DNA of 64,000 bases from Acidimicrobiia bacterium (GCA_043720595.1 JAYSSK010000069.1:35480-99479); one strand, 5' to 3'. Shown: positions 10,517-54,316, numbered from the stretch's first letter. The notes: generated by a model not told the origin, from the sequence alone. Numbers and translations: made by a program.

Positions 10517-11854
10517 ATGCAAGAGATCGTCGCTGCAATTAACGCTGGAGCATCCGGCAACGAGATCGGAGCGCTTCCGCTGCCCGAGTCATATCGGGCC
10601 GTCGTCGTGGAGCGGACCGACGCTGCGATGTTCGAGGGGATGGCCTCAGCCGACAAAGACCCGCGTCAGAGCCTGAAGCTGCGCGACGTTGCCCTGCCGG
10701 AGTTGGCTCCTGACGAGGTGTTCGTGGCCATGATGGCCAGCTCCATCAACTTCAACACGGTATGGACGTCGATCTTCGAGCCGATGGCCACGTTCGGCTT
10801 CCTCGATCGGTTGGCAAAGGAGAGCGAGTACGGGAAGCGCCATGCGCTGCCGTATCACGTGGTGGGTTCAGATGGCTCGGGAGTGGTGTTGCGGGTCGGG
10901 TCTGCGGTGCGCAACTGGAAGCCGGGCGACCGGGTCACCATCCACTGCAATCACGTCGACGACCAAGACCCAAGTGCTCACGACGATTCGATGCTGGCCA
11001 GCAACCAGCGCATTTGGGGGTTTGAAACCAACTTCGGTGGGCTCGCCGACGTGTCTGTGGTGAAGGCCAACCAGTTGATGCCGAAACCCGCGCATCTCAG
11101 TTGGGAAGAGTCCGCTGTCAACGCTCTGTGCAGCTCCACTAGTTACCGCATGTTGGTCAGCGGTAACGGGGCGCGGATGAAGCAGGGCGACTCGGTGTTC
11201 GTCTGGGGTGCAACCGGAGGTATCGGAGGATACGCGGTGCAGTACGTGCTCAACGGCGGTGGCACCCCTGTGGGAGTGGTGTCGTCGCCAGAGAAGGCAG
11301 AGTTGCTGCACGAGCTTGGTTGCGAGCACGTGATCAATCGAAAAGAGGCCGGCTACCGGTTCTGGTCAGACGAGCACACTCAGGATGAATCGGAGTGGCG
11401 TCGGCTGGGTAAAGACGTTCGGGGGCTCATCGGCGAAGACCCAGACATCGTGTTCGAGCATCCAGGCCGCCAGACCATGGGCGCGTCGGTCTTCATCGCA
11501 AAACGCGGAGGCACCATCGTCACGTGTGCGGCAACGAGTGGTTACATGATCGAGTACGACAACCGGCATCTGTGGATGAAGCTGAAGAGCATCAAGAGCT
11601 CGCACTTTGCCAACTACTCCGAGGCGTACGCAGCCAACCGTTTGTTGGCGCAGGGCAAGATCGTCCCAGCCCTTTCGGGCGTCTATCCACTGGCGCAGAC
11701 CGGGGACGCTGCGTTCCAGGTGCACCACAATCTGCACGAGGGCAAGCTGGGCATCCTGTGCCTTGCAGAGCGTGAAGGTATGGGTATCGACGACCCCGAG
11801 TTCCGCGACAAGGTTGGCGAAAAGCGGCTCACCGTCTTCCGTCGCCACGCCTAG
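10517..11854 (+). CDS. ccr: Crotonyl-CoA carboxylase/reductase
   Basis: 445 aa. LPESYRAVVV...ASSINFNTVWTSIFEP...RHALPYHVVGSDGSGVV...QRIWGFETNFGGLA is characteristic of Ccr rather than a generic MDR. Confidence 0.88.
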   Translation: MQEIVAAINAGASGNEIGALPLPESYRAVVVERTDAAMFEGMASADKDPRQSLKLRDVALPELAPDEVFVAMMASSINFNTVWTSIFEPMATFGFLDRLAKESEYGKRHALPYHVVGSDGSGVVLRVGSAVRNWKPGDRVTIHCNHVDDQDPSAHDDSMLASNQRIWGFETNFGGLADVSVVKANQLMPKPAHLSWEESAVNALCSSTSYRMLVSGNGARMKQGDSVFVWGATGGIGGYAVQYVLNGGGTPVGVVSSPEKAELLHELGCEHVINRKEAGYRFWSDEHTQDESEWRRLGKDVRGLIGEDPDIVFEHPGRQTMGASVFIAKRGGTIVTCAATSGYMIEYDNRHLWMKLKSIKSSHFANYSEAYAANRLLAQGKIVPALSGVYPLAQTGDAAFQVHHNLHEGKLGILCLAEREGMGIDDPEFRDKVGEKRLTVFRRHA

Positions 11855-39369: not shown

Positions 39370-39443
39370 CGGGATGTAGCGCAGCTTGGTAGCGCGCCAC
39401 GTTCGGGACGTGGAGGCCGGGGGTTCAAGTCCCCCCATCCCGA
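39370..39443 (+). tRNA. tRNA-Pro (anticodon CGG)
   Basis: Hand-folded cloverleaf. Acceptor CGGGATG/CATCCCG plus discriminator A. D-arm GCGC-AGCTTGGTA-GCGC. Anticodon arm CCACG-TTCGGGA-CGTGG. T-arm GGGGG-TTCAAGT-CCCCC. 74 nt, no encoded CCA. Confidence 0.9.
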
Positions 39444-39520
39444 CAACCCGATGAAGCTTGAACACCGCATGGCCAAACCAAGCCAAACCAGGCCAGGCCG
39501 GGTCGGCGCTGAACGAAGAA

Positions 39521-40758: not shown

Positions 40759-43659
40759 CTATGGGATGTAGCCGTTGATGTCAACCACAACATGAGTTGT
40801 GGCCGAGGAATACAGGCAGACCTTGCCACTCGCGCCCAAACGGGCCATCGCGGCGTTGGAAATGGTGTCACCTGAGTTGAAGTTGATGTTGGATGCCAGT
40901 GGCAGGGCTGTCCCGCACGGATAGATCGTGACGAATCCGGCACTGCTTGGTTGGGTAACAGCGAGGTTGAGCGTCACTGCGTAGGCGTTTGCCGGAATCG
41001 CGTTGCGGCCTCCGACGGTCAGCTCCAGAGTTGTTCCGCCAACCAATAGTCCGCCGCCGGCCTGTTGTCCATCTGCGGTGAATTGTCCTGGGCGGGTGTC
41101 GAGGAACCGTGCGGGCACCTGGCCGGTGTAGGGCGAAGTTGATGGGTAGTAGCCATTGGCGTCGACCACGATGTGAGTCTGGGCCGATGAATAGACACAG
41201 ATTTTTCCGGCGGTTCCCAGGCGGGCTGCCACCGAGTTTGCGATCGTCTGGCCGGCGACGAAGTTCAGGTTCGAAGCCAACGGCAGCGGAGAGCCGCAGG
41301 GGTAGACCGTCACGAAACCGGCAGTTGTCGGCTCGGTGACTGCGATGTTGAGTGCAACCGCGTTGGGGGTGGCCGAAATGCCACCTCGGTTAGCGATGGT
41401 GAGTTCCGTGGTGAACCCCGCCGGCCGGATGCCTATGCCGGCAAATTGGCCGTCGATGGTGAACTGGCCGGCGCGCGTGTCCATGAGGCGTGCCGGAGTT
41501 GTTGAGGTGAAGAAAGGTACAGATCTCGAGTACGCGGACGCATCGACGACGACGTGGGTAGTGGCCGAGGCGTAGATGCACGTCTTGCCTCCGGCTCCGA
41601 CCCCAGCTGGGACAGAGGCGGCGATGGTCATCCCGGCAGAGAAGTTGACGTTCGACGATGTGGGAAGCGTCGTTCCGCACGGGAACAGGGTGAGAAATCC
41701 AGCAGCTGCTGGCTGGGTGACGGCCACGTTCAGCCACACGGTGCTGGCATCGGCTGGGATGCCTGCCCGGCCGATCAGTTGGAGTTGCGTAGTGGTGCCA
41801 GCCTGCAACAGGCCGGTACCTGCCATCTGCGTATCTACGGTCTGTTCTCCTGGGCGGGAGTCCATGAGACGAGCAGGGCTAAAGGCCACAAAGGGCGAAA
41901 CTGGAGGCGGCGGAGTTGTGGTTGTGGTTGTTGTGGTGCTGGTTGTTGTGGTGCTGGTTGTTGTGGCTGTGCTGGTGCCGGTGTCGAGTTCAAGGAGGGT
42001 GATGGATGCTGGGGGGAAGCTGCGGTTGTAGCTGGTTGCGCCGCCGCGGTTGGTGGTGGTGCCGGGTGCGTCGGAGAAGTCGTTGTTCGGGACGACTTTG
42101 CCGTTGTAGGTGGGGAGTGTGTCGTTGATGTTGGTGCCGGCGAAGGTGTCGGCATATTCGCTGAGGATGGTTTTGCCGTCGATGCTGATGGTGGCGGTTT
42201 TGGCTGTGTTGGTCTTGTTGATGACCATGAGGGTGGTGTTGCCGTTTTTTTGGCCGGCGTAGATGGAGAGGTCTGTGCTGGCGTTAAAGGTGGTGGCGAC
42301 ACCTTTGATGGTGGTGCCGAATCGTTTCCAGAGGGCCATGGCGTAGTAGGTGGGGTACCGGTAGGCGTCTTGGTAGTTGGCGTCTTTGAAGCCCATGAGT
42401 CCGAACTCGTTACCGAATGAGTAGTCGTAGTACATGGTGAATTGGTTCGAGCCGATGAATCGGTCGTTGAGGCCCATCTGGCCGATGGAGTCCCCGATCA
42501 TCATTGCGTTCATGATTTGGTTGAGACGCATACCAGTTTGTTCTTGCCAGCCTTCGGAGGTCAGCCCGTACTCCGACATCAACACCGGAGTTTTACGCGT
42601 GATTCCTGCATTTGCTTCAAGGACGGAGAGCTGCTGGTCGAGCTCGGGGAGCTTGGTTTCAGGAAAAGCAAGGATGGTGGCGTTGCCGGCCGGTGTGTTT
42701 GGTGGCGGGCTGTACTGGTAGTAGGTGTGAACGATGAGGAAATCGATATCGGTGCCGGCCCGGTTGAACAGGGGCTGCATCCACGGATTGGCTGTGTTCA
42801 GTTCACCCTGAGTTCCAGGTATGCCGACCCTGATGGTGGGGTCGATGGTCTTGAGGAGTGTTTTGGTTTCTGCGTACCCGTTCCGGCGGGTTGCACCAGT
42901 ACCGATGCCTTCGTAGAACTCGACGGAGTTGCACGTCCAGACTGTTTCCCACCCGAAATCCAGACAACCAGCCAGACCCTTACCGCCCATGGTCTCGTTA
43001 CCGAACTCCCACGTCTTGATACCCATTGGTGCAACAACACCAGCATCAACGCGCTTCTGAGCCCAGAACCCAACCGTCTTCCAATCGACACCCAACTGAT
43101 CAACACCAATCACCCGGGTATCAGTCACCGTGCCATTGGAAAACGCCAACAACGCAGCGTTTTCTTTCATCGTGGCATTCGCATTCAGCGTGATCACCAA
43201 CTGATCGGTGCCCATACTGTTGGACCACTTGAAAAACTCTGACGTACGAATCAACGGATCAGTCGTCAAATTACGTTTCGCAGTCGGGTAACACGGCGTG
43301 CCATAGGTAACCGCCCCAGGCGTTGCAGACAACTCACACGACGCCCAACCCCAATCCTGTGCTGCAATACCACCCGGGAACCGCATGAACTCCGTCGCCT
43401 GGCTACCACGCGACGCCAACTGGGCATTCAAGTAATACGGATGCAAGAAGAACGACGCATTCGTACCCCACTTCATCGGACCAAAATCACGAAACGCACG
43501 ACCATCCACCCTGATGGTCCCATCAACCGCCGCCTGCGCAGAGCCGACGCCGGATCCGACGATTGAACCAAGCGCCGCAGCAGCGGCAAGCATTGACAAA
43601 ACCGTCCGTTTCCGGAGACGGGCTAGCGGACGTTTGGTCGACGAGGACGTCGGTGTCAT
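40759..43659 (-). CDS. Secreted clan GH-A-like glycoside hydrolase with Thr-rich linker and three tandem C-terminal ~110-aa repeat domains
   Basis: ORF trimmed to MTPTSSSTKRPLARLRKRTVLSMLAAAAALG..AQA, with AAGGAG upstream. KTWEFGNETMGG and VLMSEYGL are candidate acid/base and nucleophile Glu motifs. Linker TTTSTTTTSTTTTTTTTPPPP. Three copies of ARLMDxRxG...GF(L/V)T(L/V/I)(F/Y)PCG...SN(V/L/I)NF...VVD(A/I)xxY. Confidence 0.7.
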   Translation of the reverse strand: MTPTSSSTKRPLARLRKRTVLSMLAAAAALGSIVGSGVGSAQAAVDGTIRVDGRAFRDFGPMKWGTNASFFLHPYYLNAQLASRGSQATEFMRFPGGIAAQDWGWASCELSATPGAVTYGTPCYPTAKRNLTTDPLIRTSEFFKWSNSMGTDQLVITLNANATMKENAALLAFSNGTVTDTRVIGVDQLGVDWKTVGFWAQKRVDAGVVAPMGIKTWEFGNETMGGKGLAGCLDFGWETVWTCNSVEFYEGIGTGATRRNGYAETKTLLKTIDPTIRVGIPGTQGELNTANPWMQPLFNRAGTDIDFLIVHTYYQYSPPPNTPAGNATILAFPETKLPELDQQLSVLEANAGITRKTPVLMSEYGLTSEGWQEQTGMRLNQIMNAMMIGDSIGQMGLNDRFIGSNQFTMYYDYSFGNEFGLMGFKDANYQDAYRYPTYYAMALWKRFGTTIKGVATTFNASTDLSIYAGQKNGNTTLMVINKTNTAKTATISIDGKTILSEYADTFAGTNINDTLPTYNGKVVPNNDFSDAPGTTTNRGGATSYNRSFPPASITLLELDTGTSTATTTSTTTTSTTTTTTTTPPPPVSPFVAFSPARLMDSRPGEQTVDTQMAGTGLLQAGTTTQLQLIGRAGIPADASTVWLNVAVTQPAAAGFLTLFPCGTTLPTSSNVNFSAGMTIAASVPAGVGAGGKTCIYASATTHVVVDASAYSRSVPFFTSTTPARLMDTRAGQFTIDGQFAGIGIRPAGFTTELTIANRGGISATPNAVALNIAVTEPTTAGFVTVYPCGSPLPLASNLNFVAGQTIANSVAARLGTAGKICVYSSAQTHIVVDANGYYPSTSPYTGQVPARFLDTRPGQFTADGQQAGGGLLVGGTTLELTVGGRNAIPANAYAVTLNLAVTQPSSAGFVTIYPCGTALPLASNINFNSGDTISNAAMARLGASGKVCLYSSATTHVVVDINGYIP

Positions 43660-44006
43660 TCTTGGTGCTCCTTGGAGAGAGAAATCAGAAGTGAACGCGA
43701 GTTCATGCGCCACCGAGAGTAGCAGCGCACTTCTGTAATCCAATGTCCTTGACGTCACATGGGCACGAATTCACCAACCATGGTGACCTCGTTCGCTGGC
43801 GGTCAACAGAAGTGCCCTCACCTGGGAAAATATCCCCTACCCGGCTGCGACAAAGGCGGCCTGCACATCGGTGCGGCGACGCTTTGGAGGACGTTGCGAC
43901 AGCTCTGCAGAACGTGAGTTCGCTCTGCTCGTTCGCCACCGTCCGTGCGATCTCACCTCGGACATAGTGACCGGGACGACGGTGTGACAGCCGTAGTCTT
44001 TGTTGT

Positions 44007-44504
44007 GTGGAGTGCTTCAGGAGATTTCGGCTGAGGGTCCGTGCATTTCGACGCCTTCCGCGTCGTTCGAAACTGGTCTTCGTTCCCGCTCTCGTTCTCA
44101 CCCCCATCTTCCGAACTGTCGCTCGGCGTCGAGGAATCAAGTCGGCAACTGCACTCGCTCGCCGACTGGGAGGGCCCTTGGCCGAGCCGACGACCCCGTC
44201 AGCTCAGACCGAGGTCGATTCCGTCCTCCCGATTGCTCGCCAGGTGGTGTCGGGCGTTCGCGCTGCAGCAGGCGCGCTTCCCGCCGAGTTGGTGTGCCTT
44301 CCTCGATCCTTGACGTCATGGACTCTCCTCAACCGGATGGGAGTCGCTGCAACGCTACGCATCGGCATGGACGCGTCGACCGCTCATCAAACGGCACATG
44401 CCTGGATCGATGTCATGGGCGAGTCCGTCGGGGAAGCCCCTAGCCACATCGCCCAGATGGCCGAGTTCGCCGACCCGATTCTTGGAAGAAAGCCTGCGGA
44501 ATGA
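44007..44504 (+). CDS. Lasso peptide biosynthesis B2 protein (transglutaminase-like leader peptidase)
   Basis: GTG start. ELVCLPRSLTSWTLLNRMG...TAHAWIDVMGE gives Cys and His in the McjB-type arrangement. ATGA overlap with the next gene. Confidence 0.8.
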   Translation: MECFRRFRLRVRAFRRLPRRSKLVFVPALVLTPIFRTVARRRGIKSATALARRLGGPLAEPTTPSAQTEVDSVLPIARQVVSGVRAAAGALPAELVCLPRSLTSWTLLNRMGVAATLRIGMDASTAHQTAHAWIDVMGESVGEAPSHIAQMAEFADPILGRKPAE

Positions 44505-45460
44505 CTCAATCGACGGCGGTGTCCTTGCACGGTTTCGTTGTCGCCAGCCCATGGACACTTTCGGCCCGCCCTTCGCAGCATCCAGCAGAAGTCCGATGCA
44601 CCGTCGAACGGAGCGTCGCTCCCCAGCTCCCTGATTCAGCATCGGGCAGCCTGGTCGCCCAGTCTGTGGACGAAAACGGGATCGCGACCATGCAGGTGCG
44701 CTCCACGGCAACCGGGCACCTCATCAATTGGCCCGGGTTCATGAGTGCCTCGCTCAACATCGTCCCCGACGGATCTGTTCGAACCCTGCATCTGATGGCC
44801 CACACGACCGGCGCGCTTCGGTTGGCTTCTGTGTTGGTTTCACCTGCAGTAGGGGTTGTCGCGATGCTCAGTGGTGCCCTTGTGCTTCACGCAACAGCGG
44901 TGAACATCGATGGCCGCGCAGTACTGCTTGTAGCAGATCGAGGAGGCGGCAAGTCGTCGGTTGCTGCGCTTCTCGGCAGCGCGGGTATCCCCCTCCTTGC
45001 CGAAGACGTATGCGCAGTATCGATAGGCGTTGATGGTATTCCGGTTGTGCACGCTGGAGTTCAAGAGCTTCGTTTGCGGCCAACAACACCCTGGCTTGCG
45101 GTCCTCCCCGGGCTTGTCCGCTCCGAACGGCATTCAGACGGTCGAATTGTCGTGCGTCCGCCAACGACGCCACGGCATTGCGTTCCTGTGGGGGCTGTGA
45201 TGGTGGTTCGCCTGTCACGCTCCGCCGACGAGGTATTGGTCACCCGGTTCACGGGCGTGCAGGCAGCCAGCGTGTTGATAAAGGCCCAAAGGTGCCCCCC
45301 TACTGCTGGAAGTCCTCTCACGAGATCTGCCTTCGAAGGATCGGCAGCTTGCGCAGATGCACTGCCCGTGTCAGCGCTCACTGTCCCGTGGGCCGAACGT
45401 CGGCGCAATCGGCAACTCGGCGTGGAACTCAGGGATGCCTTGAAGGCGGCAAGCGTCTGA
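44501..45460 (+). CDS. HPr kinase-like (Hpr_kinase_C domain) putative lasso-precursor kinase, paralog 1
   Basis: LVLHATAVNIDGRAVLLVADRGGGKSSVAALLGSAGIPLLAEDV has the HprK C-terminal P-loop architecture. Confidence 0.7.
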   Translation: MTQSTAVSLHGFVVASPWTLSARPSQHPAEVRCTVERSVAPQLPDSASGSLVAQSVDENGIATMQVRSTATGHLINWPGFMSASLNIVPDGSVRTLHLMAHTTGALRLASVLVSPAVGVVAMLSGALVLHATAVNIDGRAVLLVADRGGGKSSVAALLGSAGIPLLAEDVCAVSIGVDGIPVVHAGVQELRLRPTTPWLAVLPGLVRSERHSDGRIVVRPPTTPRHCVPVGAVMVVRLSRSADEVLVTRFTGVQAASVLIKAQRCPPTAGSPLTRSAFEGSAACADALPVSALTVPWAERRRNRQLGVELRDALKAASV

Positions 45461-45470
45461 ATCCTTACGG

Positions 45471-45755
45471 TCAGTTGGGGGCGTTTGATGGGGCTGCTAT
45501 TCCGCGGCGTGCCAACTCGGCGAGAAATCGGCCGATGTCGGTGCGCGCCGTATCTGCGTTCACGTCGAATCTGTCGGTCACGACACCGATCAATTCGTTC
45601 ATGTCTGCACCACGGGAGAGTGACTCCCATACGACGATTCCTGACCCGTCAATAGACAGGTAGGTGGAATTGCGAAGGTCGAAGACGATGACGGACTCGT
45701 CGACTCGCTCCCATGTAATCAAGTCGGTCTGTAGCCGCCAGACTTGTTCAAACAT
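45471..45755 (-). CDS. PqqD-family RiPP recognition element (lasso B1 protein)
   Basis: 94 aa. VIVFDLRNSTYLSIDGSGIVVWESLSRGADMNELIGVVTDRFDV...ARTDIGRFLAELARRGI is a classic PqqD pattern. Confidence 0.8.
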   Translation of the reverse strand: MFEQVWRLQTDLITWERVDESVIVFDLRNSTYLSIDGSGIVVWESLSRGADMNELIGVVTDRFDVNADTARTDIGRFLAELARRGIAAPSNAPN

Positions 45756-47003
45756 TCGAACAGCCTACGCGTCGGCGAGAATGAGCATGGAATGCCCTTG
45801 CCGTTGAACCCCAAAGCCAATATTCTTCCCGCCGACCAGTCCACCATCCGGTGGAATTTTCCTCTGTTCACTGACGTGTCGACCCTTGGCAAGCTGGTTC
45901 GTCCGCCAGAGTTGGACCCCAGCACGCGCGCCCGAAACAAGGCCAGGGGCTCTTTGTTCGAAGTACTCGTCGACCAGATTGCATTGCGACTAGATGACCG
46001 GCCGGTTTATGTCCAGTTTTCTGGCGGGTGTGACTCATCGCTTGTTTTGTCAGCAGCGGTGGTTGCCTGCGATCGAACCGACCACGATGCTCCGGTCCCA
46101 CTGACCTTCCGCTACCCGCTGCTTCCGGAGACCGATGAGAACGATTTCCAGAGCCTGATGCTCGAATTCCTCAAGCTCGGGCCTGGGCACCGCGAAATAG
46201 TCACCACCGAGTTCGACCTCCTTGGCCCTGCAGCACAGAGGGGACTCAACGAGCTGGGTGTCGTGTGGCCGGCGCCTGTGGTTGCTTGCTCGGATGTCTT
46301 CCGATCGATCCCCCCGGGGTTGGTTCTCTCCGGCGAGGGCGGCGATGAAGTGATGGGGCCTCGTCGTATCGCCGGGGTCTTTCGAGCGGCGGAAATGCTC
46401 AGACGGGGACAGCTCAAGGCTACCGCAGGAAACTTGGCGCATGCGGTCGGGCCCTCGATTGTGAGGCGGAGGGCAATGCTGAAAGGTGGAGGAATGGTTG
46501 GGGAATGGATCGAGGCCGAAGAGGCGAAACGATTCGTTCGGCGAATCGGTGAGACGTATGGCCGGGAACCACTCCGAAGCAGCCGTTACGCCTCGTACTA
46601 TGCACAACTTTCAAGTTCAACGCTTGCGCTCCACCAAATCACAGCAATCATGCATTGGGCTGGCCAGCAGTATTGCGCGCCGTTGATGGACCCGAGCTTC
46701 GTGGCTGCGGTGAACGACCTCACTCCGGACTATGACCTCCGGAATCGTCATCGTGTGCTCCGGCGTCACTTCGCGGAGCATCTTCCAGTGGAGATACTCC
46801 GGCGGACGGACAAGCGCTACATGCAGTCCGTCTACTTCAACGACCATGCGCGCGAATTTGCCCGTCACTGGGACGGGCAAATCGAAGACGACGCTATAAA
46901 CGGCAAGCTACTCAAGAACCATTGGTTGACTGCTAATCCGCACGAAGTCTGGTCGCAGACCTTCTTGCTGCTGCAGGCAGTTTGGTTGGCCTCGACGCGT
47001 TGA
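45744..47003 (+). CDS. Asparagine-synthetase-like ATP-dependent lasso cyclase (C protein), lacking the N-terminal domain
   Basis: PP-loop VYVQFSGGCDSSLVL lies only about 90 aa into the ORF. LVLSGEGGDEVMG follows downstream. The true start is probably downstream of 45755 (for example Met at 45792), because 45744 overlaps the divergent pqqD start. Confidence 0.7.
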   Translation: MFKHSNSLRVGENEHGMPLPLNPKANILPADQSTIRWNFPLFTDVSTLGKLVRPPELDPSTRARNKARGSLFEVLVDQIALRLDDRPVYVQFSGGCDSSLVLSAAVVACDRTDHDAPVPLTFRYPLLPETDENDFQSLMLEFLKLGPGHREIVTTEFDLLGPAAQRGLNELGVVWPAPVVACSDVFRSIPPGLVLSGEGGDEVMGPRRIAGVFRAAEMLRRGQLKATAGNLAHAVGPSIVRRRAMLKGGGMVGEWIEAEEAKRFVRRIGETYGREPLRSSRYASYYAQLSSSTLALHQITAIMHWAGQQYCAPLMDPSFVAAVNDLTPDYDLRNRHRVLRRHFAEHLPVEILRRTDKRYMQSVYFNDHAREFARHWDGQIEDDAINGKLLKNHWLTANPHEVWSQTFLLLQAVWLASTR

Positions 47004-47007
47004 GCTA

Positions 47008-47142
47008 TCAGGAGCTGGTAAGCGGCTGGCCTGCTGGGATGGCCTGGTCGGCGAAGGACTTCGGGCTAGCGGCGAGGGTGGTCTGAGCGACCGAGCCGAT
47101 TTCTTGAACGGCTGGGGCGGTGTATGGCTGCTTGGTTGACAT
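47008..47142 (-). CDS. Predicted lasso peptide precursor (44 aa): leader MSTKQPYTAPAVQEIGSVAQTTL / core AASPKSFADQAIPAGQPLTSS
   Basis: These are the last 44 codons of track ORF 47008..47628. ATG at 47142. The leader fits YxxPx(L/V)x3Gx5Tx with Thr at -2. The core has Ala1 and Asp9 (ring-forming pair as in paeninodin) and a C-terminal Ser. It is convergent with the cyclase, 4 bp apart. Confidence 0.7.
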   Translation of the reverse strand: MSTKQPYTAPAVQEIGSVAQTTLAASPKSFADQAIPAGQPLTSS

Positions 47143-47202
47143 ACCGGTATTCTGAAGGGCACAACGGGACAACGGTAATCGTCTGTTTCCCGTACGGGAG
47201 TA

Positions 47203-48213
47203 GTGGTGGATTACGTGAGTCGGTCGATCTGGGTGCACGGACTCCGGGTTCGGGCTGACTTCGGACTTCCCTGTCTGCGAGCCGCTGACGCGGTTCCAGA
47301 CTTGACGTTGCTCACCACGATCCATAAGTCTGGCCGGCCGGAGCCCGAGACCGTCCGAAGGCCGGAAGACCACGATCAACGAAGTGTCGGTGCTACCCGA
47401 CCGCTCTATGCCGACCGCAACATGCAGATCGCAGGAACCATCGATGGTCCAAGTGTTGTGGTTCGGTATGGCGCCGTCGGGGTGCAGTTCACCCTTGACG
47501 TTTCGCAGTCGCCAATCAGGGTCATCGCGGCTGCCGACCGGGATGAATGGCTTGAGTGGATCCCGGTTCTCGCTCAAGGAGCGATGCTCGCGGCCGCCGT
47601 GGAACTGCAAGGTCGAGCAGCGTTTCATGCGAACACAGTCGATGTTGATGGCGAGGGTGTGTTGATCGGGGGAGTATCCGGTGCTGGCAAGACCGTCGCA
47701 ACAGCCCTACTCATTCTCGCGGGCAACAGATTGGTGGCTGATGACGTCAGCGTGGTCGACCCCGAACTTCCTGTCCGACCTGGCCTGCTCGAGATGCGGA
47801 TCCGCACTTGGGAGAACGCTGTCGGCCAGATGCTGGTCGATGAACTCTCCAAAATGCCTGGAGCGACACAACGTTCAACGATTGATTGGCGTGTCGCAGT
47901 CCGCTCCGGCGGCGATCCGGACTACGAGGGGGTCATGCCCGCCCGCATCGTGTTGACGGTGGTCGACGACGACATCGACCGCCCACAACTTCACACCGTG
48001 TCCGGCTCCGAGGCGCTCACGGCCCTTCTTCCAGTGAAGCGGCTGGTTGGGTGGACGGATCCGGAACGGCTCCGGGCAGACTTTGGGCATTGCGCAGACC
48101 TTGCGGGGCGAATCCCGGTTCAACGCTTGGTGCTCCCCAAGCTCTCGAGCAACGATTCGGGCTGCATCCATCGCGTCGCGGACCAACTCGACCAACTCTT
48201 CAGGCACGCCTGA
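47203..48213 (+). CDS. HPr kinase-like (Hpr_kinase_C domain) putative kinase, paralog 2
   Basis: GTG start. AAFHANTVDVDGEGVLIGGVSGAGKTVATALLILAGNRLVADDV. Confidence 0.7.
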   Translation: MVDYVSRSIWVHGLRVRADFGLPCLRAADAVPDLTLLTTIHKSGRPEPETVRRPEDHDQRSVGATRPLYADRNMQIAGTIDGPSVVVRYGAVGVQFTLDVSQSPIRVIAAADRDEWLEWIPVLAQGAMLAAAVELQGRAAFHANTVDVDGEGVLIGGVSGAGKTVATALLILAGNRLVADDVSVVDPELPVRPGLLEMRIRTWENAVGQMLVDELSKMPGATQRSTIDWRVAVRSGGDPDYEGVMPARIVLTVVDDDIDRPQLHTVSGSEALTALLPVKRLVGWTDPERLRADFGHCADLAGRIPVQRLVLPKLSSNDSGCIHRVADQLDQLFRHA

Positions 48214-48279
48214 ATAAACCGAAAGTTCTTCGGAAAGCGCCTCTTCCTGAGTTGCCCGAATGTGCGCAAGCAACCAGGG

Positions 48280-48954
48280 TTACCCTGACGCGGTGCTTTC
48301 CGTCCAGCGCTGCACCGCCTGGTGGCGGTTTCGGACCCCCAATTTTCGATACAGGACGCGCTGCAGCGCCTCGACTGTTTTCGTTGTCACGTCGATTTCG
48401 GCGGCGATCGATTTGTTCCCTGCGCCCGTGCGCATGAGGTTGAGCAACTGCAATTCTCGGGGTGTCACCTGTGGCAACGAACCTTCGACGGAACTCTGCG
48501 ACACGGACAGAGCATCGAGCAATTGGGTGACGCTCCATCCGGGCACGCCGTTCATCACCGCAACGACTGCTTCGCGCACGGCCGAAAATCCGTGCGCTGG
48601 AGCCACGAGCCACATCACACCCTTTCGCAGCGCCTCGGATAGTTCGTTGGGTAGCTGTGATGCGGCGGTCACCAGCACGATGGGGTGACCCCTACGTACC
48701 ATTCGCAACGAAACGCCGAACCCGCTGTCCGCGTCGTCCAACAGCACGGTAATGCTGGCCTCCGTTGTTTTCGCAGAGGTGGCTCGCGTCGAGTGAGTTT
48801 CACCTGGCGTTCGGCGACGGGAGCCTTCGGGGACGACGATTGATCCAACACCCGGAAGGTCAGCTTCGTGCAGCAGCGTCGCCACGCCGAGTGCAATGAG
48901 TGGATTCGCACCGACAACAACCAGAGTTCTGCCGTTTACCGAGACCCTGGTCAT
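48280..48954 (-). CDS. LuxR-family transcriptional regulator with atypical receiver-like N-terminal domain
   Basis: C-terminal HTH VTPRELQLLNLMRTGAGNKSIAAEIDVTTKTVEALQRVLYRKLGV. Confidence 0.7.
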   Translation of the reverse strand: MTRVSVNGRTLVVVGANPLIALGVATLLHEADLPGVGSIVVPEGSRRRTPGETHSTRATSAKTTEASITVLLDDADSGFGVSLRMVRRGHPIVLVTAASQLPNELSEALRKGVMWLVAPAHGFSAVREAVVAVMNGVPGWSVTQLLDALSVSQSSVEGSLPQVTPRELQLLNLMRTGAGNKSIAAEIDVTTKTVEALQRVLYRKLGVRNRHQAVQRWTESTASG

Positions 48955-49592
48955 CGCATTCTTTCCCCGTCTGCAAGCATCGACGTTTTAGCCCGGCCGA
49001 CAGGTTCCCGGACGCGACGTTGTTCGCTACCCGAGATAGTTGCGGAGTTCAGAAGTCCTCTGGCACGGGCTGTCTCGACGGCCTGACCGGCAGTGTGGAC
49101 ACCCCACTTTTTGTAGAGCCGTCGTCGGTGGGTGGTCACAGTCGACTGACCGATTCCGAGCTCTCGTGCGAGCTCGACGTTGGACTTACCAGCTGCAATG
49201 CCGCGCACTATTGCGAGTTCGCGTTCCGTGGGTGGCATGACGGCTATTAACGGGGCGAGCCAAGGCTGCTTCGGCAAAACAGCCGAGGTGGTTGTCCCAC
49301 AGGCACTCTGGCTGGGCGTCGAAAGCTGTTTGGCCAGCCAAAGCAAAGGCTTAGTGGCCGGTGCCCGGTCCAGGTCGACGGGCGGAACCTGAGGGTGACG
49401 CAAATGAACTGCGGAAAGTGTTGCGCCGCGGCCCACGAGCACGTCGGGCTCGGAACCGCCTAGGAGGGATTCACATGATCCAACTGTCCACTCGCTAGCG
49501 ACCTGTATAGCAATGGTTGCACCGGCCTCGCGTAACACGGCGTGAATCGCCTCGTTCCACAGTGCAGTGGATTCGACCAGAGCGACCTTCAC
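48951..49592 (-). CDS. LuxR-family transcriptional regulator with degenerate receiver-like N-terminal domain
   Basis: PTERELAIVRGIAAGKSNVELARELGIGQSTVTTHRRRLYKKWGV. N-terminal KVALVESTALW...PDVLVGRG lacks the usual acidic pocket and phospho-Asp. 4-nt overlap with the downstream LuxR gene. Confidence 0.7.
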   Translation of the reverse strand: MKVALVESTALWNEAIHAVLREAGATIAIQVASEWTVGSCESLLGGSEPDVLVGRGATLSAVHLRHPQVPPVDLDRAPATKPLLWLAKQLSTPSQSACGTTTSAVLPKQPWLAPLIAVMPPTERELAIVRGIAAGKSNVELARELGIGQSTVTTHRRRLYKKWGVHTAGQAVETARARGLLNSATISGSEQRRVREPVGRAKTSMLADGERMR

Positions 49593-50808
49593 ACCCGGAG
49601 TTTTGCAGCTGTTGTGGACCCGTGAACGCGTTCACCACTACCTGCCCGATACATTTGAGATCGTGGAAGGTCCGATTGGCGCGTTGGTTGACCTCGCGCT
49701 CGAGCGTGGCCGCGATCACGGCGAGGGCTGGCTCGGGAGATTCGGACCGTCTTTGTTCGAAGCGGCTCACGAACATCGGCTCGTACCGATGCTCTGGGAC
49801 AAGTTGGCTGCGGTTCCGGGAGCGGACCGGCAACACATTGCTGCGTCAGACCTGCATGCCCGTCACCGATACCGAATCGCCGAAGAGGAACTTGTCCGGG
49901 TAGCCGCAATTGCAGCTTCTGTCGATGTGGAGATAGGGGTCGTTAAGGGAGTTATCAACGCCGAACGCTGGTTTGCACCGGACCCCTCTGTTCGCCCTTG
50001 TTCCGACATCGACTTGTTTCTCGATCCAGCCGATCCTGGCGGCACAGATCGCCTCCTTCGAGCACTGGAACCGGACAATGCCCTTTGCGGCCATGCGGGC
50101 CACCTCATGTCAATCGGGGTCCTACCCGACATCCCGGTCACCGGAGGCCGGCTGCTCGTGGAGATCCACGCAAACCCGATGACGCTGCGGCTGAGTCACA
50201 GCCGGCTGGATGCCGTTTGGCAATCTACGGTTCCGACCAAGACTCGCGCAGGGGCGTCCGTTCGATGCCTCGACACGACAACCGCATTGATACACGCGCT
50301 TATTAATTCGGCAAAAGATAACCACGCATACCTCCTGCAGGTGCTCGAAGTGGGGCGCGCACTTCAGGATCCTTTGGTCGATTGGGATCGATTCATGCAG
50401 ATTGTTCGCGACAATCGTTGGGACGCCGTGTTCGACGATGCCATCAGGTATGTGTGCGGCCTGCTGGGGCAGACTCCCCCGCCCGTCAAGCTGCAGCCAG
50501 AACCGCTAGCAGCATGGACCCTGCGCCGTCTCGCGCCTCAACAAGACCGGTTGGGTGGTCGGGTGTCGTGGAGGCGCGCACAACGGTTCTGCAAACTTGA
50601 CCTCGTTGTGCCCGGGACACGGACTCGGTCCGTCCGCGGGATTGTCACCCGTACCTTTTCGCCGGATGAGTACATAACTGCCTTCGCTCCCGATCTCACC
50701 GGACCGTATCCGCTACGTGCGGCACGGTTCTGGATGCGCCGCCAGCAATACGTCAAAGGCACTCGGTCGTCGCTAGCTGGCCCTCTCGCGTTGAAGCACA
50801 AGGGATGA
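49567..50808 (+). CDS. Nucleotidyltransferase-family protein (NTP_transf_5-like), putative lasso tailoring enzyme
   Basis: RPCSDIDLFLDPADPGG (GS/DxD-type NTase motif) within about 400 aa. The start is probably downstream of 49592, because the ORF 5' end overlaps the divergent LuxR gene. ATGA coupling to the ABC gene. Confidence 0.6.
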   Translation: MDSTRATFTPGVLQLLWTRERVHHYLPDTFEIVEGPIGALVDLALERGRDHGEGWLGRFGPSLFEAAHEHRLVPMLWDKLAAVPGADRQHIAASDLHARHRYRIAEEELVRVAAIAASVDVEIGVVKGVINAERWFAPDPSVRPCSDIDLFLDPADPGGTDRLLRALEPDNALCGHAGHLMSIGVLPDIPVTGGRLLVEIHANPMTLRLSHSRLDAVWQSTVPTKTRAGASVRCLDTTTALIHALINSAKDNHAYLLQVLEVGRALQDPLVDWDRFMQIVRDNRWDAVFDDAIRYVCGLLGQTPPPVKLQPEPLAAWTLRRLAPQQDRLGGRVSWRRAQRFCKLDLVVPGTRTRSVRGIVTRTFSPDEYITAFAPDLTGPYPLRAARFWMRRQQYVKGTRSSLAGPLALKHKG

Positions 50809-52646
50809 AGCCCATTCTGTCTGTTTGGCGATTGTTCGCCGGTCTTGGGACGAACCTGCGTCAGACCTACCGATTGGTGTGGGACGGTGCGCGTCCGCAG
50901 GTGCTCGTTGGCTTGGCGCTTGACCTTGTTTTGACACTCGCCACCATTGGTCAACTCGCGTTGGTGAAACGGTTGCTTTCTCAACTTCGAATCGGGGCGA
51001 GCGGCGGACAGTTCACGCGGCCGTTGATGCTCACAATTGTCGTGAGTGGCCTGCTCGCCGCGTCGGTCGCAGCAGTGGGCGCTGTCCAGATGTTCATCAG
51101 ACCGCTCGCAGTGGAGATGCTGACGCGTCACACATACGCGAAAGTGCTCCAGCGGCTGCGGACTGCGCCGCTTGAGCACTTCGACGAGCCGACATTTCAT
51201 GACAGGCTCGAACGGTTGTCGAAGGACGGTGTCGAACGGCCAGCGGAACTGGTGTGGGCTGCCTCGGGTTTGCTGGCGAGCATCATCGGGCTGGTCGGAA
51301 TTGGAGCCTTCGTTTCGACGATTCTTCCGGAGATCATGCCAATGGTTTTGATCGGTGCGGTACCGCTGCTCATTTCCAGTCGCGTTGATGCGCACGCTTA
51401 CTATCGGTATATAGAGGGTGTCGGAGCGGTGAGACGACGGACCCAGTATCTCCGAGACGTGCTGACGGAACGCAAGATGGCTCCTGAGCTGCAGGGTTAC
51501 GGGTTGCGACCAACCTTCGAAGCTCGTCACGAGGCACTGCAGCAGGAGCGGATCGATCGACTGGCCGCGATGGTCAAGGCCCGCTCCATCCGTTCCATCT
51601 TCACCGCGGCCGCCACCGTCATCGTCACGATTGCGGCGATGTCGCTCATTGCCTGGAAAGCAACCACAGGTGCACTGACGATCGATGAAGCGGTGGCAGT
51701 GGTCCTCGGTGTACAACAACTCACCTCTCGGATGTCCACCATGCGGTCCGCTCTTTCTGTGGTGCAGCAGAACCGTCTGTTTCTTGCCGACTTGTTTGGG
51801 TTCCTTTCCGACGAGCCAAAAGTATCGGCTCAGGACCCGGCCGGCCACGGTGACGCGGAATCCGAAAGGCCTCTCATGCCGACCGGTTCAATCGATCTGG
51901 ACGGCGTTGGTTTCCGCTACCCAGCTCAGACCCGAGATGCAGTCCAAGACGTCAGCCTTCACATCAACTCCGGGCAGGTCGTTGCCCTGGTCGGCGAAAA
52001 TGGTTCGGGAAAAACCACACTCGCGAAATTGATTGCCGGCCTCTATTCGCCCACGGCTGGCGCAGTATCGGTCGGCGGGGTCAATTTGGCTCGGCTCAGT
52101 GGCCCGAACCGCACGCGCCATGCCGTGACGGTCTTCCAGGACTTTGCGAGGTTTGCGCTGAGCGCACGTGACAACATCGCGCTGGGCGATGTGTCGAAGG
52201 GCGACGATCCTCGGCGCGTTCAGTCATCGATTGAAACTGCCGGACTCACTTCGGTGATTGATGCGCTCCCCCACGGCCTCGATACCATCTTGGCTGCCCA
52301 GTTCGACGGAGGTGTCGACCTCTCCTCAGGGCAATGGCAGCGGTTCGCTTTGGCCCGAGCGTTCTACCGGGATGCGCCCGTGCTGCTGTTGGACGAGCCG
52401 ACCGCCGCGTTAGACGCGCGGTCTGAATACCTGTTGTTCGAACGAGTGCGCGAAGTGGCCCGCGGACGTACGGTGATTCTGATTTCGCATCGGCTCGCCT
52501 CGGTGCGTGACGTAGACCGAATCATCGTGATGAAGAGCGGACGGATCGTCGAGACCGGTACCCATCACGAACTCATCGCAGCGGGCGGCCTATATGCCGA
52601 GCTGACCGACCTGCAGGAGCGAACCAGTTTGGCCAACCTCGATTGA
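50805..52646 (+). CDS. ABC transporter, fused permease/ATPase (McjD-like lasso peptide exporter)
   Basis: N-terminal 6-TM domain. LVGENGSGKTTLAKL (Walker A), LSSGQWQRFALARAF (signature), VLLLDEPTAALD (Walker B). Confidence 0.85.
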   Translation: MKPILSVWRLFAGLGTNLRQTYRLVWDGARPQVLVGLALDLVLTLATIGQLALVKRLLSQLRIGASGGQFTRPLMLTIVVSGLLAASVAAVGAVQMFIRPLAVEMLTRHTYAKVLQRLRTAPLEHFDEPTFHDRLERLSKDGVERPAELVWAASGLLASIIGLVGIGAFVSTILPEIMPMVLIGAVPLLISSRVDAHAYYRYIEGVGAVRRRTQYLRDVLTERKMAPELQGYGLRPTFEARHEALQQERIDRLAAMVKARSIRSIFTAAATVIVTIAAMSLIAWKATTGALTIDEAVAVVLGVQQLTSRMSTMRSALSVVQQNRLFLADLFGFLSDEPKVSAQDPAGHGDAESERPLMPTGSIDLDGVGFRYPAQTRDAVQDVSLHINSGQVVALVGENGSGKTTLAKLIAGLYSPTAGAVSVGGVNLARLSGPNRTRHAVTVFQDFARFALSARDNIALGDVSKGDDPRRVQSSIETAGLTSVIDALPHGLDTILAAQFDGGVDLSSGQWQRFALARAFYRDAPVLLLDEPTAALDARSEYLLFERVREVARGRTVILISHRLASVRDVDRIIVMKSGRIVETGTHHELIAAGGLYAELTDLQERTSLANLD

Positions 52647-52688
52647 CCATTGGTCGCCTTCGGGTATGACTGGTGGCGGAGCGGTGGC

Positions 52689-53132
52689 TTAGCGAGCGGT
52701 GGAGTCTGCTGTGGCTCGGTAGTTGGTTGACGCGTCGCCTGGTTGCGGGCGATCTTCGTACCGTTCGCCCGCGAGGACGGCTCGCATCGCCTTGCGGACG
52801 CGAATTGGGTCCAGCGGCTTGATGAGCCAGCCGTCGGCGTCGCACTTCTGCGCCAGGTAGGTGTCGGCGTTGCGATCGAGCAGCAGGATGATTGGGACCT
52901 CTGGCGACCGGCCACCCGAAGCCTCGAGGCGCAGGTCGTAGGTGACCGCAATGGCGCCCATGTCGGAGATCTGCATGTCGAGGATGACCAGGTCGGGTTC
53001 TTCGGTGGCAACCACGTCACGCACGGCCCGCCCGGCACTGACGCTGCGGATGACGGTGTCACCCCCGGGGATGGCAGCACGGATCTCGTCGTGGACCCAG
53101 GGGGCGTCGCTGCAGATCAAGACGGTGGGCAT
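52689..53132 (-). CDS. Stand-alone response-regulator receiver domain protein
   Basis: ORF trimmed to MPTVLICSDAPWVHDEI. PDLVILDMQISDMGAI (phospho-acceptor Asp) and GWLIKPLD (conserved Lys). Confidence 0.75.
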   Translation of the reverse strand: MPTVLICSDAPWVHDEIRAAIPGGDTVIRSVSAGRAVRDVVATEEPDLVILDMQISDMGAIAVTYDLRLEASGGRSPEVPIILLLDRNADTYLAQKCDADGWLIKPLDPIRVRKAMRAVLAGERYEDRPQPGDASTNYRATADSTAR

Positions 53133-53155
53133 GGCCGTCGAGAATAGCGCCCGGT

Positions 53156-54316
53156 TCACCAGAGGGCAGCCAGCACAGCGAGCGCTCCGGCCTCGTCCAG
53201 CCGAGGGTCGAATCGGTTGACCAGAGAAACCACCGGTGCCGGCAACGCGTCGCGCAATGTTTTGGCCGCGGAGGTATCCCGGTCTTGTCTGGCAACGTGG
53301 TCAGCAAGGATCTCGTTCACGGCCCGCACGTGAGCTGACTTCCCTGACACTGCCGTCGGGAGGTCGTCGTAGAACGGCTCGGCCCGGTTGATGATCACAC
53401 CATCGACGGTGATTCCGGTCTGACTGATCTGTTCGGCAAAAATCACCGCCGCACAGAGGGGTTCGGTCTCGGAAGTCGTCACAAGGACCCAAGCAGTCGA
53501 GCGGTCCGTCAGAATTTCCAACGCAGCCGCAGCACGTTCCCGGAACCCCGCTTCGAGGCCATCGAAGAGCCGGAAGAATTCGATGGCATCCGAAACGACA
53601 GCCCCGCCAATGACCTGCGTGAGCGGCTTCAGCACCGCTTGCGCCGCTGCGGAAACGAATCGAAAGGCACCCTTTCCTGGAGCAATGACCAGTCGGAACA
53701 AGCTGTGGTCGAGAAATCGAACCAGGCGGCGAGGTGCCGTCACGAAGTCGAGCGCGTTCGCGGCCGGTGGAGTGTCCACTACAACGACATCGAAACGATT
53801 GTCGTGTACAAGTTGCTGGACCTTCTCGGCAGCCATGTACTCCTGGGTTCCCGACAGTGTCCCAGAAATGTTTGTGTACAGACGATTGGCCAAGATGGCT
53901 TCCGCCTGATCTGGTCGTGCGTGTGTACGGATGACGTCGTCGAAGGTTGCCTTGGTGTCCAACATGCAGGCCCAAAGTTCTCCCGTGATCGGCCGGAACG
54001 CCGGTAAGTCCATCTTGTCCGAAGGCGACTTCGGCATGGGTTGAGCTAAGGAAACGCGCTGCGGCGTGTTGTCCAGGGTCTCCAGGCCGAGGGTTTCGGC
54101 GAGACGTTTGGCGGGGTCGATGGTGATCACCACGCAACGCCTCCCGCCCTGCGCCTGAGCGAGCGCGATCGCTGACGCGAGCGTCGTTTTACCAACCCCA
54201 CCGGTCCCTGCTGTGACGATGACCCGGGCCGAGGAGAACAATGAAGACAGCTCCGCGTCGTTCCGACTAGGGCGGTGCGGCCGACCAAGACTCCCGAAAG
54301 GGTCGGTGACGGTCAT
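53156..54316 (-). CDS. ArsA/Get3-like P-loop ATPase (second of a pair)
   Basis: ORF trimmed to MTVTDPFG (ATGA overlap with the upstream gene). VIVTAGTGGVGKTTLASAIA...VVITIDPAKRL. Confidence 0.8.
   Translation of the reverse strand: MTVTDPFGSLGRPHRPSRNDAELSSLFSSARVIVTAGTGGVGKTTLASAIALAQAQGGRRCVVITIDPAKRLAETLGLETLDNTPQRVSLAQPMPKSPSDKMDLPAFRPITGELWACMLDTKATFDDVIRTHARPDQAEAILANRLYTNISGTLSGTQEYMAAEKVQQLVHDNRFDVVVVDTPPAANALDFVTAPRRLVRFLDHSLFRLVIAPGKGAFRFVSAAAQAVLKPLTQVIGGAVVSDAIEFFRLFDGLEAGFRERAAAALEILTDRSTAWVLVTTSETEPLCAAVIFAEQISQTGITVDGVIINRAEPFYDDLPTAVSGKSAHVRAVNEILADHVARQDRDTSAAKTLRDALPAPVVSLVNRFDPRLDEAGALAVLAALW

Follow-up and report, generated by a model that had tools for sequence, protein, structure and literature searches.

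What can a bacterium make with two kinase-like genes, a cyclase that has no N-terminal half and a precursor gene that runs against its neighbours? This is the question raised by positions 44007-52646 of a 64,000-nucleotide stretch of DNA from an Acidimicrobiia bacterium (GCA_043720595.1, JAYSSK010000069.1:35480-99479), the whole of which is called the window here. A preliminary description, made from the sequence alone, had read ten adjacent open reading frames (ORFs) at this place as the complete pathway for a lasso peptide, a ribosomally synthesised peptide that is modified after translation (RiPP), with the B function split over separate B1 and B2 proteins. ORF listing and translation place all ten at those coordinates, and the motifs that were quoted for them (VCLPRSL...HAWIDV, SGGCDS, DRGGGKSS, GVSGAGKT and CSDIDLFLD) are all present. 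In our reading, to which we give a probability of roughly 0.78, this is an intact and chromosomally conserved cluster for a lasso peptide of the paeninodin/pseudomycoidin type. A split-B pathway of the phosphorylated type is supported by the conservation of the precursor, the Cys and His of B2, the motifs of the cyclase C, the motif of one of the kinases (kinase-2) and the DxD of the nucleotidyltransferase (NTase); the product, with its lasso topology, phosphate and sugar, is predicted. The unusual features are a cyclase without the N-terminal half, a second and divergent kinase-like gene (kinase-1), a pair of LuxR regulators and an interleaved strand layout.

The precursor peptide A (44 aa; 47008..47142, minus strand) had been placed within a longer ORF, at its 3' end, and this is where it is found: it forms the last 44 codons of a 206-codon minus-strand ORF (47008-47628), in the 200 bp between C and kinase-2. 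Its leader is MSTKQPYTAPAVQEIGSVAQTTL and its core AASPKSFADQAIPAGQPLTSS. Counted from the proposed cleavage site, the leader has Tyr-17, Pro-14, Val-12, Gly-8 and Thr-2, while the core has Ala1 and Asp9 and ends in -TSS. A thus combines what is expected of a lasso precursor, i.e. Thr-2, a motif of the YxxPxL type, a small first core residue and an acidic residue at position 7-9, with the C-terminal Ser that is expected of a phosphorylated one. The YxxPxL-type leader signature is what the RiPP recognition elements (RREs) of split-B lasso systems bind (PMC10368454, PMC13381572). Homologues of A occupy the equivalent position in five other loci: in L001/L006 the sequence is ...AASPKAFADQAIPAGQPLTSS, in L002 it is ASQNKTIADRTIAAGEPNTSS, and L003 and L005 have two copies each, of the type AQNVxGxGD...S. 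The preliminary description had named homologous neighbourhoods without a conserved small precursor as one of the findings that would speak against it, and this is not what the related loci look like. Comparing the window with L001, 25 of the 135 nucleotides of A differ; read in the minus-strand frame, 22 of these are third codon positions and not one is a second position, which marks A as a coding gene under purifying selection.

Some details of the precursor region deserve mention. A plus-strand ORF (47124-47258) has the same length as A, is partly antisense to it and is easily mistaken for the precursor; it was rejected as a candidate, having no lasso motif and a start codon that is lost in L001. 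The tandem precursor pairs on the minus strand of L003 (~11220-11650) and L005 (~11280-11700) have another core type (AQNVxGxGD...S-x-L...A-G/A-S), and several of them end in Ser-Arg or Ser-Lys, not in Ser. In the nearest single-kinase outgroup, L007, A lies on the plus strand upstream of C (~9770-9960), and the first acidic residue of this precursor (AQSPLFPKSD...FAS) is at position 10 if the core begins at Ala, which would mean either an unusually large ring or a shifted cleavage site.

The gene set recurs together with the homologous precursor in the same five loci, which puts the cluster far beyond chance. The chromosomal site is shared as well: asd on one side and a receiver-domain gene, ArsA-like genes and NfeD on the other also flank the cluster in L001/L006, L002, L003 and L005, and judged by these neighbours the cluster is a vertically inherited chromosomal locus and no obvious mobile island. 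Between the window and L003 the flanking genes are 77-94% identical, and B2, kinase-1, NTase and the ATP-binding cassette (ABC) exporter, at 56-87% identity, are in line with them. For B1, C, kinase-2 and the LuxR genes the identity is only 30-48%, and L003 has the other type of precursor. This split suggests that the block B1-C-A-kinase-2-LuxR has either been exchanged or has diverged much faster than the backbone formed by B2-kinase-1 and NTase-ABC; by this division kinase-2 goes with the substrate and kinase-1 with the conserved machinery. In L003, the B2-kinase-1 and NTase-ABC pairs are inverted around the central block.

Domains were called by Pfam and NCBIfam profile scans against curated cut-offs, and the profile check bears out the assignment of B2, PqqD, Asn_synthase, NTP_transf_5, GerE and the exporter. 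The leader peptidase B2 (44007..44504, plus strand) is a transglutaminase-like Cys protease with 58.4 bits to NF033537 lasso_biosyn_B2 (cut-off 33) and an E-value of 1.3e-15 to PF13471 Transglut_core3. Its Cys97 and His131 do not vary among five orthologues and two proteobacterial proteins annotated as B2; which start codon is used is uncertain, as the orthologues begin slightly further in. B1, the PqqD-like RRE (94 aa; 45471..45755, minus strand), reaches 44.9 bits to PF05402 (cut-off 23.4), and exactly this protein is present in a public collection.

Kinase-2 (~336 aa; 47203..48213, plus strand, with start candidates at 47203, 47206 or 47215) just passes the Hpr_kinase_C profile PF07475 (34.9 bits vs a cut-off of 33.3) and aligns with the P-loop region of HprK/P in the PDB (E 4.5e-5). 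The lasso-kinase motif H...GxxGxGK[ST]...DD, which has been defined for BsfK and its relatives (PMC10368454), is complete in kinase-2, with all eight positions in place (H142...G157-x-S-G-x-G-K163-T...D180-D181), as against six of eight in kinase-1. In a rough neighbour-joining tree, kinase-2 clusters with the single kinases of the nearest loci that have a short cyclase. Neither protein belongs to the HPr-rel-A system (TIGR04352 with TIGR04353), as kinase-2 and kinase-1 score 30.7 and 25.4 bits where the cut-off is 200, and B1 scores 27.2 bits to the partner model TIGR04353 PqqD_rel_X (cut-off 35). They are not bona fide HPr kinase/phosphorylases either: scores to TIGR00679 are 36.9 and 12.8 bits vs 240, with an alignment confined to a P-loop segment of ~50 residues. 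Ser is the last or second-to-last residue in 34 of 35 distinct precursors at loci with a kinase match (tblastn E<1e-6) vs 6 of 19 at loci without one (Fisher p = 3e-7, for loci that are not phylogenetically independent). This co-occurrence fits what is known of PadeK, PsmK and SyanK, which act specifically on the C-terminal Ser of a linear precursor.

The cyclase C (403 aa; 45792..47003, plus strand, open from 45744) is a single-domain, Asn-synthetase-like macrolactam synthetase with 60.5 bits to PF00733 Asn_synthase (cut-off 21). At most 419 codons are open, and the most likely start is the ATG at 45792, which gives a protein identical to database protein P0001, not the TTG at 45744. S93-G-G-C-D97-S and G197-E-G-G-D201-E are invariant in 27 homologues (in the family, S-G-G-C/R-D-S-S and G-E-G-G-D-E), so that the PP-loop synthetase domain of a lasso cyclase is there, while the two-domain form, a glutaminase-like N-terminal domain plus synthetase in ~510-650 aa, is not. 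A profile of the family aligns only with residues 200-456 of E. coli AsnB (E 5.5e-12) and only with residues 255-576 of the 650-aa lasso cyclase of a Sulfitobacter plasmid (hhalign, 97.3%). The AlphaFold2 (AF2) model is compact (pLDDT 91), with chains of human asparagine synthetase as best PDB matches (Foldseek E ~6e-5); searching the PDB with the single sequence of C gave nothing meaningful, and the family profile was needed for matches. Could the N-terminal domain be encoded elsewhere? In the 64-kb window, tblastn with a 741-aa AsnB matched the short C only, showing no other Asn-synthetase or glutaminase-like sequence, and with no gap in the cluster longer than 66 bp a separate gene was rejected. 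That a kinase replaces the missing domain is unlikely as a general rule, as several short-cyclase loci have no kinase match at the same tblastn threshold.

The preliminary description had called the cyclase truncated, and this part of it does not hold: C belongs to a widespread family of ~400-aa single-domain proteins, and no local truncation has taken place. A word-indexed search gave 29 homologues with lengths of 316-417 aa. When 1.84 billion representatives were searched exhaustively with a profile, 883 relatives came out at E <= 1e-30, the best 150 of which are all 314-508 aa long, mostly 370-430. The maximal open frames at 85 short-cyclase loci have a median of 417 aa. The GTDB species genomes contain 208 relatives, and the best 80 of these are all from Actinomycetota except one metagenome-assembled genome (MAG) of Gemmatimonadota; the taxa include Acidimicrobiia, Thermoleophilia, Nocardioides, Isoptericola, Terrabacter, Amycolatopsis, Jiangella and others. 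The closest named relative, from the Acidimicrobiia bacterium MAG L006, is 73% identical. At 86 loci, an iterative search places the short cyclase beside B2 (71/86), B1 (75/86), NTase (45/86) and ABC exporter (70/86) genes, usually with one HprK-like kinase gene, and 54 of the 86 have recognisable lasso-type precursors, with the leader YExPxhxxhG[ST]hxxhTx and the core G/A-x7-D. In its co-occurrence with B1, B2 and lasso-type precursors, the short family behaves like the cyclase belonging to a large lasso lineage of actinobacteria. Lasso cyclases without the N-terminal domain are not mentioned in the searchable literature; the novelty is provisional.

Two groups within this lineage stand out. 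In the Nocardioides group, L017 (12508-14733), and also L015 and L020, have a full-length, apparently active AsnB-type enzyme after the kinase (in L017 741 aa, GATase_7 2e-44, Asn_synthase 3e-83), which may be a tailoring amidotransferase; the precursors of these loci have long Gly-rich tails ending in GFGS. In L050, L052 and L060, which are Solirubrobacterales MAGs, a short cyclase occurs with no kinase detected, and the precursors (CEKxFGxSDGHTF...C-T/A-S-x) have Cys1, Asp9 and a second Cys, which suggests that disulfide-bridged lasso peptides are made by the same short-cyclase family.

The NTase (49567..50808, plus strand) matches NTP_transf_5 (PF14907) with 74 bits (cut-off 31.2) and is 74-80% identical to its counterparts in L001 and L003. 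Its invariant S146-D-I-D149 corresponds to the DxD that is essential in PsmN, and the protein qualifies as PsmN-like; since its conserved part sets in near residue 33, the gene probably starts further in. It is followed by the ABC exporter (613 aa; 50805..52646, plus strand), a fused permease-ATPase of the McjD/MsbA-like kind with full-length MsbA-type matches (ABC_tran PF00005, 2.4e-29). The two regulators, of 224 aa (48280..48954) and 213 aa (48951..49592), are on the minus strand, and both match GerE (PF00196, 3.1e-13 and 1.3e-12). A GerE pair is found at the equivalent place in L001, L002 and L003; in L005 one gene of the pair is called and the second is seen by tblastn.

Taken together, the parts suggest the following pathway, in which parts and motifs come from the sequence, while the order of steps, the site of phosphorylation and the chemistry of the NTase are carried over from paeninodin, pseudomycoidin and Bsf. 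The 44-aa precursor would be made from its conserved minus-strand ORF, and B1 would bind the YTAPAV motif of the leader and present the peptide, as characterised B1 proteins do. Kinase-2 would phosphorylate the C-terminal Ser of the linear precursor, possibly repeatedly, like PadeK, PsmK and SyanK; the co-occurrence of kinase genes with a C-terminal Ser supports this step. B2 is predicted to cleave after Thr(-2)-Leu(-1), whereupon the single-domain C would adenylate Asp9 and join it to the amine of Ala1, giving a 9-residue ring and a 12-residue tail. The calculated monoisotopic mass is 2043.027 Da for the linear core and 2025.017 Da after loss of one water; every HPO3 would add 79.966 Da (2104.983, 2184.949 and 2264.916 for one to three) and every hexose 162.053 Da (2267.036 with one of each). 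The NTP_transf_5 enzyme may then put a further group, e.g. a hexose, on the phosphate, as PsmN does. The ABC transporter would export the product and probably confer immunity, and the two LuxR proteins presumably regulate the cluster. Phe, Tyr, Trp, Arg, His and Lys are all absent from the tail of A, QAIPAGQPLTSS, and because no bulky residue is present, it may be a C-terminal phosphate or sugar that holds the tail in its threaded position. The model for this is pseudomycoidin, with an Ala1-Asp9 ring and a similar tail, which is unthreaded when undecorated and for which a phospho-hexose lock was proposed; its C-terminal Ser is phosphorylated, and its hexoses depend on the NTase (PMC6993621). 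The preliminary description had taken as established that HprK homologues phosphorylate the C-terminal Ser of lasso precursors, and that kinases paired with nucleotidyltransferases decorate the tail further; the literature agrees on both (PMC8498205, PMC6993621), and kinase plus NTase genes are typical of paeninodin-like clusters (PMC8498205, PMC13381572).

A number of observations weigh against the lasso reading. C is without the ~240-aa N-terminal domain of the two full-length kinase-associated cyclases with which it was compared, and to our knowledge no member of the short-cyclase family has been shown to make a lasso. The best NCBIfam matches of B1 are lasso PqqD chaperone models, at 37 and 32 bits, under their cut-offs of 70 and 80. 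There is no clear Shine-Dalgarno sequence at A, and a scan for promoter-like sites found none, with terminator-like sites at chance level. The NTase gene is missing from L002 and L005 and so is dispensable in relatives; N genes likewise come and go in Bradymonadales clusters (PMC10368454). The PsmN-like LppN was inactive in one heterologous system. In kinase-1, finally, Ala for the motif Gly and ED for DD are fixed in all orthologues, next to a His, a G-G-G-K-S-S and a second Asp that are also invariant, and Ala substitutions at these motif positions damaged BsfK (PMC10368454).

This last point leads to the role of kinase-1 (319 aa; 44501..45460, plus strand), one of the two Hpr_kinase_C-like paralogues of the preliminary description. 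By Pfam the claim holds for kinase-2 only, as kinase-1 has 14.5 bits (E 0.026), well under the cut-off of 33.3, but as a paralogue kinase-1 is confirmed by profile comparison and fold. The families of kinase-1 and kinase-2 align end to end (hhalign, 99.3% probability, E 1.9e-20, 301 columns), and for the AF2 model of kinase-1 (pLDDT 73) the top PDB matches are only HprK/P catalytic domains (e.g. 1jb1, rmsd 2.2 Å over 118 columns). The two proteins are only ~20% identical, and kinase-1 is deep-branching. Its motif reads H130, A145 (where Gly is expected), G148-G-G-K-S-S153 and E168-D169 (where DD is expected). It is a rare protein, with six homologues in a search of 5.8 billion proteins, and among the actinobacterial loci two kinase paralogues occur only in the window's own clade. 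Judging from alignment and model, kinase-1 is a divergent HprK-fold paralogue of kinase-2 and a putative kinase. Our first guess is a second phosphoryl transfer, to another Ser/Thr or in extension of a phosphate chain; almost equal odds go to a role without catalysis or one as a phosphorylase.

The pairing of a canonical with a divergent kinase is not confined to this clade. The unrelated plasmid NZ_CP139716 of Thalassobaculum sp. OXR-137 (L087, 6246-16155) carries a lasso cluster that also has two HprK-like genes, one of them degenerate (H->Q, DD->DG), in addition to two PqqD genes, a sulfotransferase gene and a 630-aa cyclase. The arrangement is thus a recurring one, though unstudied.

The alternative that fares best is that kinase-2 alone phosphorylates, and that kinase-1 is a degenerate protein with the HprK fold, which would serve B2 as scaffold or chaperone, bind the phospho-peptide or work as a phosphorylase/phosphatase; we place this alternative a little short of even odds. 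It draws on the invariant A145 and E168, which replace the motif Gly and the first Asp, and on the coupling of kinase-1 to B2 by an ATGA overlap. The conservation of kinase-1 follows B2, NTase and ABC, not the precursor, the cyclase and kinase-2, and the independent pair on the Thalassobaculum plasmid has its own degenerate second copy. HprK/P itself catalyses phosphorolysis too, in the same active site. On the other hand, both changes (G->A and D->E) are conservative, and His130, G-G-G-K-S-S, Asp169 and an ELRLR segment are invariant, so that the nucleotide-binding site looks intact on alignment.

A second alternative concerns the topology of the product. Here, the peptide would be an unthreaded head-to-side-chain macrolactam (branched-cyclic), or threaded only for as long as its C-terminus is decorated. 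The argument is that pre-folding of the substrate would be beyond a single-domain cyclase, and that a steric plug is missing from the tail: C is missing an entire N-terminal domain, the tail of A has neither aromatic nor basic bulky residues, and unmodified pseudomycoidin, with its Ala1-Asp9 ring and small-residue tail, was isolated unthreaded (PMC6993621). Against this, in dozens of lineages the short cyclase is found beside lasso-type precursors and the complete lasso machinery, and related precursors (in L003, L005 and many others) do have aromatic or basic residues in the tail. We consider this alternative rather unlikely. The contrary and more far-reaching proposal, slightly better placed in our view and still doubtful as a whole, is that the short cyclases are genuine minimal lasso cyclases forming a large, undiscussed actinobacterial branch, and that kinase-1 adds a distinct modification and builds, together with the NTase, a C-terminal plug by which a tail with no plug of its own stays in the ring. 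If the short cyclases are minimal lasso cyclases, the N-terminal glutaminase-like domain would be dispensable for lasso folding, and the family would offer a smaller target for a first cyclase structure. No lasso cyclase structure has been solved as of mid-2026 (PMC13352647), and the lasso cyclases that have been studied are insoluble (PMC5067487, PMC6993621), which is why pre-folding of the substrate by the cyclase is still an open question. The short family bears on it, since what the N-terminal domain does can be tested directly on a natural family in which all of it is missing; such proteins may also be easier to handle.

Two further alternatives are much weaker. The cluster could consist of two RiPP systems packed together, a lasso pathway and one like those for linear polyphosphorylated peptides (LPP), with one kinase each, as occurs in some Bacillota. 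LPP clusters do have the HprK-like kinase, NTP transferase, RRE and MsbA-like pump in common with it and often adjoin paeninodin-like clusters (PMC13381572), and the cluster in the window does behave as two evolutionary modules; yet the window has one RRE, one precursor and no signal-peptidase-I-like gene, the gaps leave no room for a second precursor, and we hold this to be very improbable. That the cluster is a decaying remnant and C a pseudogene fragment, as its shortfall against the two full-length cyclases might suggest, is effectively refuted by the lengths of its relatives, its invariant catalytic motifs, the quality of its model and the lack of frameshifts in the cluster.

We return to the lasso cluster and its layout. 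The genes follow each other in the order B2 (+), kinase-1 (+), B1 (-), C (+), A (-), kinase-2 (+), LuxR (-), LuxR (-), NTase (+) and ABC (+), with intergenic distances of -4, 10, 36, 4, 60, 66, -4, -26 and -4 bp; the overlapping start and stop codons are kept. ATGA overlaps had been described for B2/kinase-1 and NTase/ABC; these are real, and there is a third between the two LuxR genes. A and B1 are, in the window's clade, single minus-strand genes among plus-strand genes, with 60 bp and 36 bp available for divergent promoters, and a transcript from A would, as far as can be deduced from the layout, pass antisense through C into B1.

On one side the cluster is flanked by an aspartokinase gene, asd and a tRNA-Pro gene, and on the other by the receiver-domain gene, two ArsA-like ATPase genes and NfeD. 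The tRNA-Pro(CGG) at 39370-39444 (plus strand), the sole match in an Rfam scan, lies just 3' of asd and ~4.5 kb from the cluster, and the conserved synteny around it argues against a tRNA-targeted island. Between this tRNA and the cluster, 40759-43758 (minus strand) encodes a predicted secreted protein of 999 aa with no Pfam match, 83-84% identical in L001/L006; at its N-terminus the protein has a signal-like segment and at its C-terminus three repeats of ~130 aa (PARLMDSRPG...VVDxxxY), and it contains a Thr/Pro-rich linker. At 52646-53160, the window is without the major facilitator superfamily (MFS) transporter gene that L001, L002, L003 and L005 have between the receiver-domain gene and the ArsA-like pair. 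The host had been described as a high-GC actinobacterium. It is an uncultured, Acidimicrobiia-like member of Actinomycetota, so that the phylum was right, and the G+C content of ~61% is only moderately high.

According to the accessible literature, Bacillota and Proteobacteria are the only sources from which phosphorylated lasso peptides have been characterised, and the searchable literature has nothing relevant on kinase-type lasso peptides from actinobacteria or Acidimicrobiia. With the cluster and its relatives the phosphorylated type would reach Actinomycetota, among them cultured strains of Nocardioides, Isoptericola, Terrabacter, Jiangella and Amycolatopsis. Related clusters are present, for instance, in Terrabacter aerolatus NBRC 106305, Nocardioides xinjiangensis, Isoptericola halotolerans and Jiangella asiatica. 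That the decoration of the tail and the sequence of the core diversify independently is suggested, in addition, by the second kinase-like gene and by the exchangeable cassette of B1-C-A-kinase-2.

How does the cluster compare with known systems? C shares with AsnB and beta-lactam synthetase (PDB 1ct9, 1jgt) the PP-loop ATP-pyrophosphatase synthetase domain with SGGxDS and GEGxDE, and differs from them in being highly divergent and having no glutaminase domain. The LPP clusters of Bacillota (PMC13381572) have an HprK-like kinase, an NTP transferase, an RRE, an MsbA-like pump and a YxxP-type leader motif in common with the window, but rely on an SpI-type peptidase, with neither cyclase nor B2, whereas the window has B2 and C, and a signal-peptidase domain is found in none of its ten cluster proteins. 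Among Proteobacteria, the comparison covers the polyphosphorylation by SyanK, the bsf cluster of Bradymonas (PMC10368454) and the unstudied plasmid clusters of Sulfitobacter indolifex and Thalassobaculum sp. The latter two were found in a plasmid search with kinase-2 and used as full-length comparators; the same search with C found nothing. The annotation of the Sulfitobacter cluster names PqqD, lasso B2, asparagine synthase, an HprK-like gene and an ABC exporter. All of these proteobacterial systems share the HprK-like kinase, PqqD, B2, cyclase and ABC exporter with the window, and Thalassobaculum in addition the two HprK-like genes, one with a degenerate motif. They differ in cyclases of 630-650 aa (Sulfitobacter 650, Thalassobaculum 630) with a GATase_7-like N-terminal domain, and in the presence of sulfotransferase genes; in Bsf, moreover, BsfK targets Ser3 and the leader has Ile(-2) (PMC10368454).

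The pade cluster of Paenibacillus dendritiformis, which makes paeninodin, and the ThcoK-type kinases (PMC8498205, PMC5067487) share with the window the split B, the ABC exporter and a YxxPxL leader bound by B1. The kinase of these systems targets the C-terminal Ser of the linear precursor, and the window is likened to them by sequence. Paeninodin belongs to another phylum and has one kinase and no NTase; the window adds the divergent paralogue and the single-domain cyclase. In pseudomycoidin (psmCAKB1B2ND of Bacillus pseudomycoides, PMC6993621) the cluster is from Bacillota, has a single kinase and co-directional genes, and no LuxR pair has been reported; its cyclase has been described as a homologue of known macrolactam synthetases. 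What pseudomycoidin and the window share is the split into B1 and B2, the HprK-like kinase and the NTP_transf_5-type transferase beside an ABC exporter, and, in the peptide itself, the Ala1-Asp9 ring, a Ser at the C-terminus and a tail without bulky residues.

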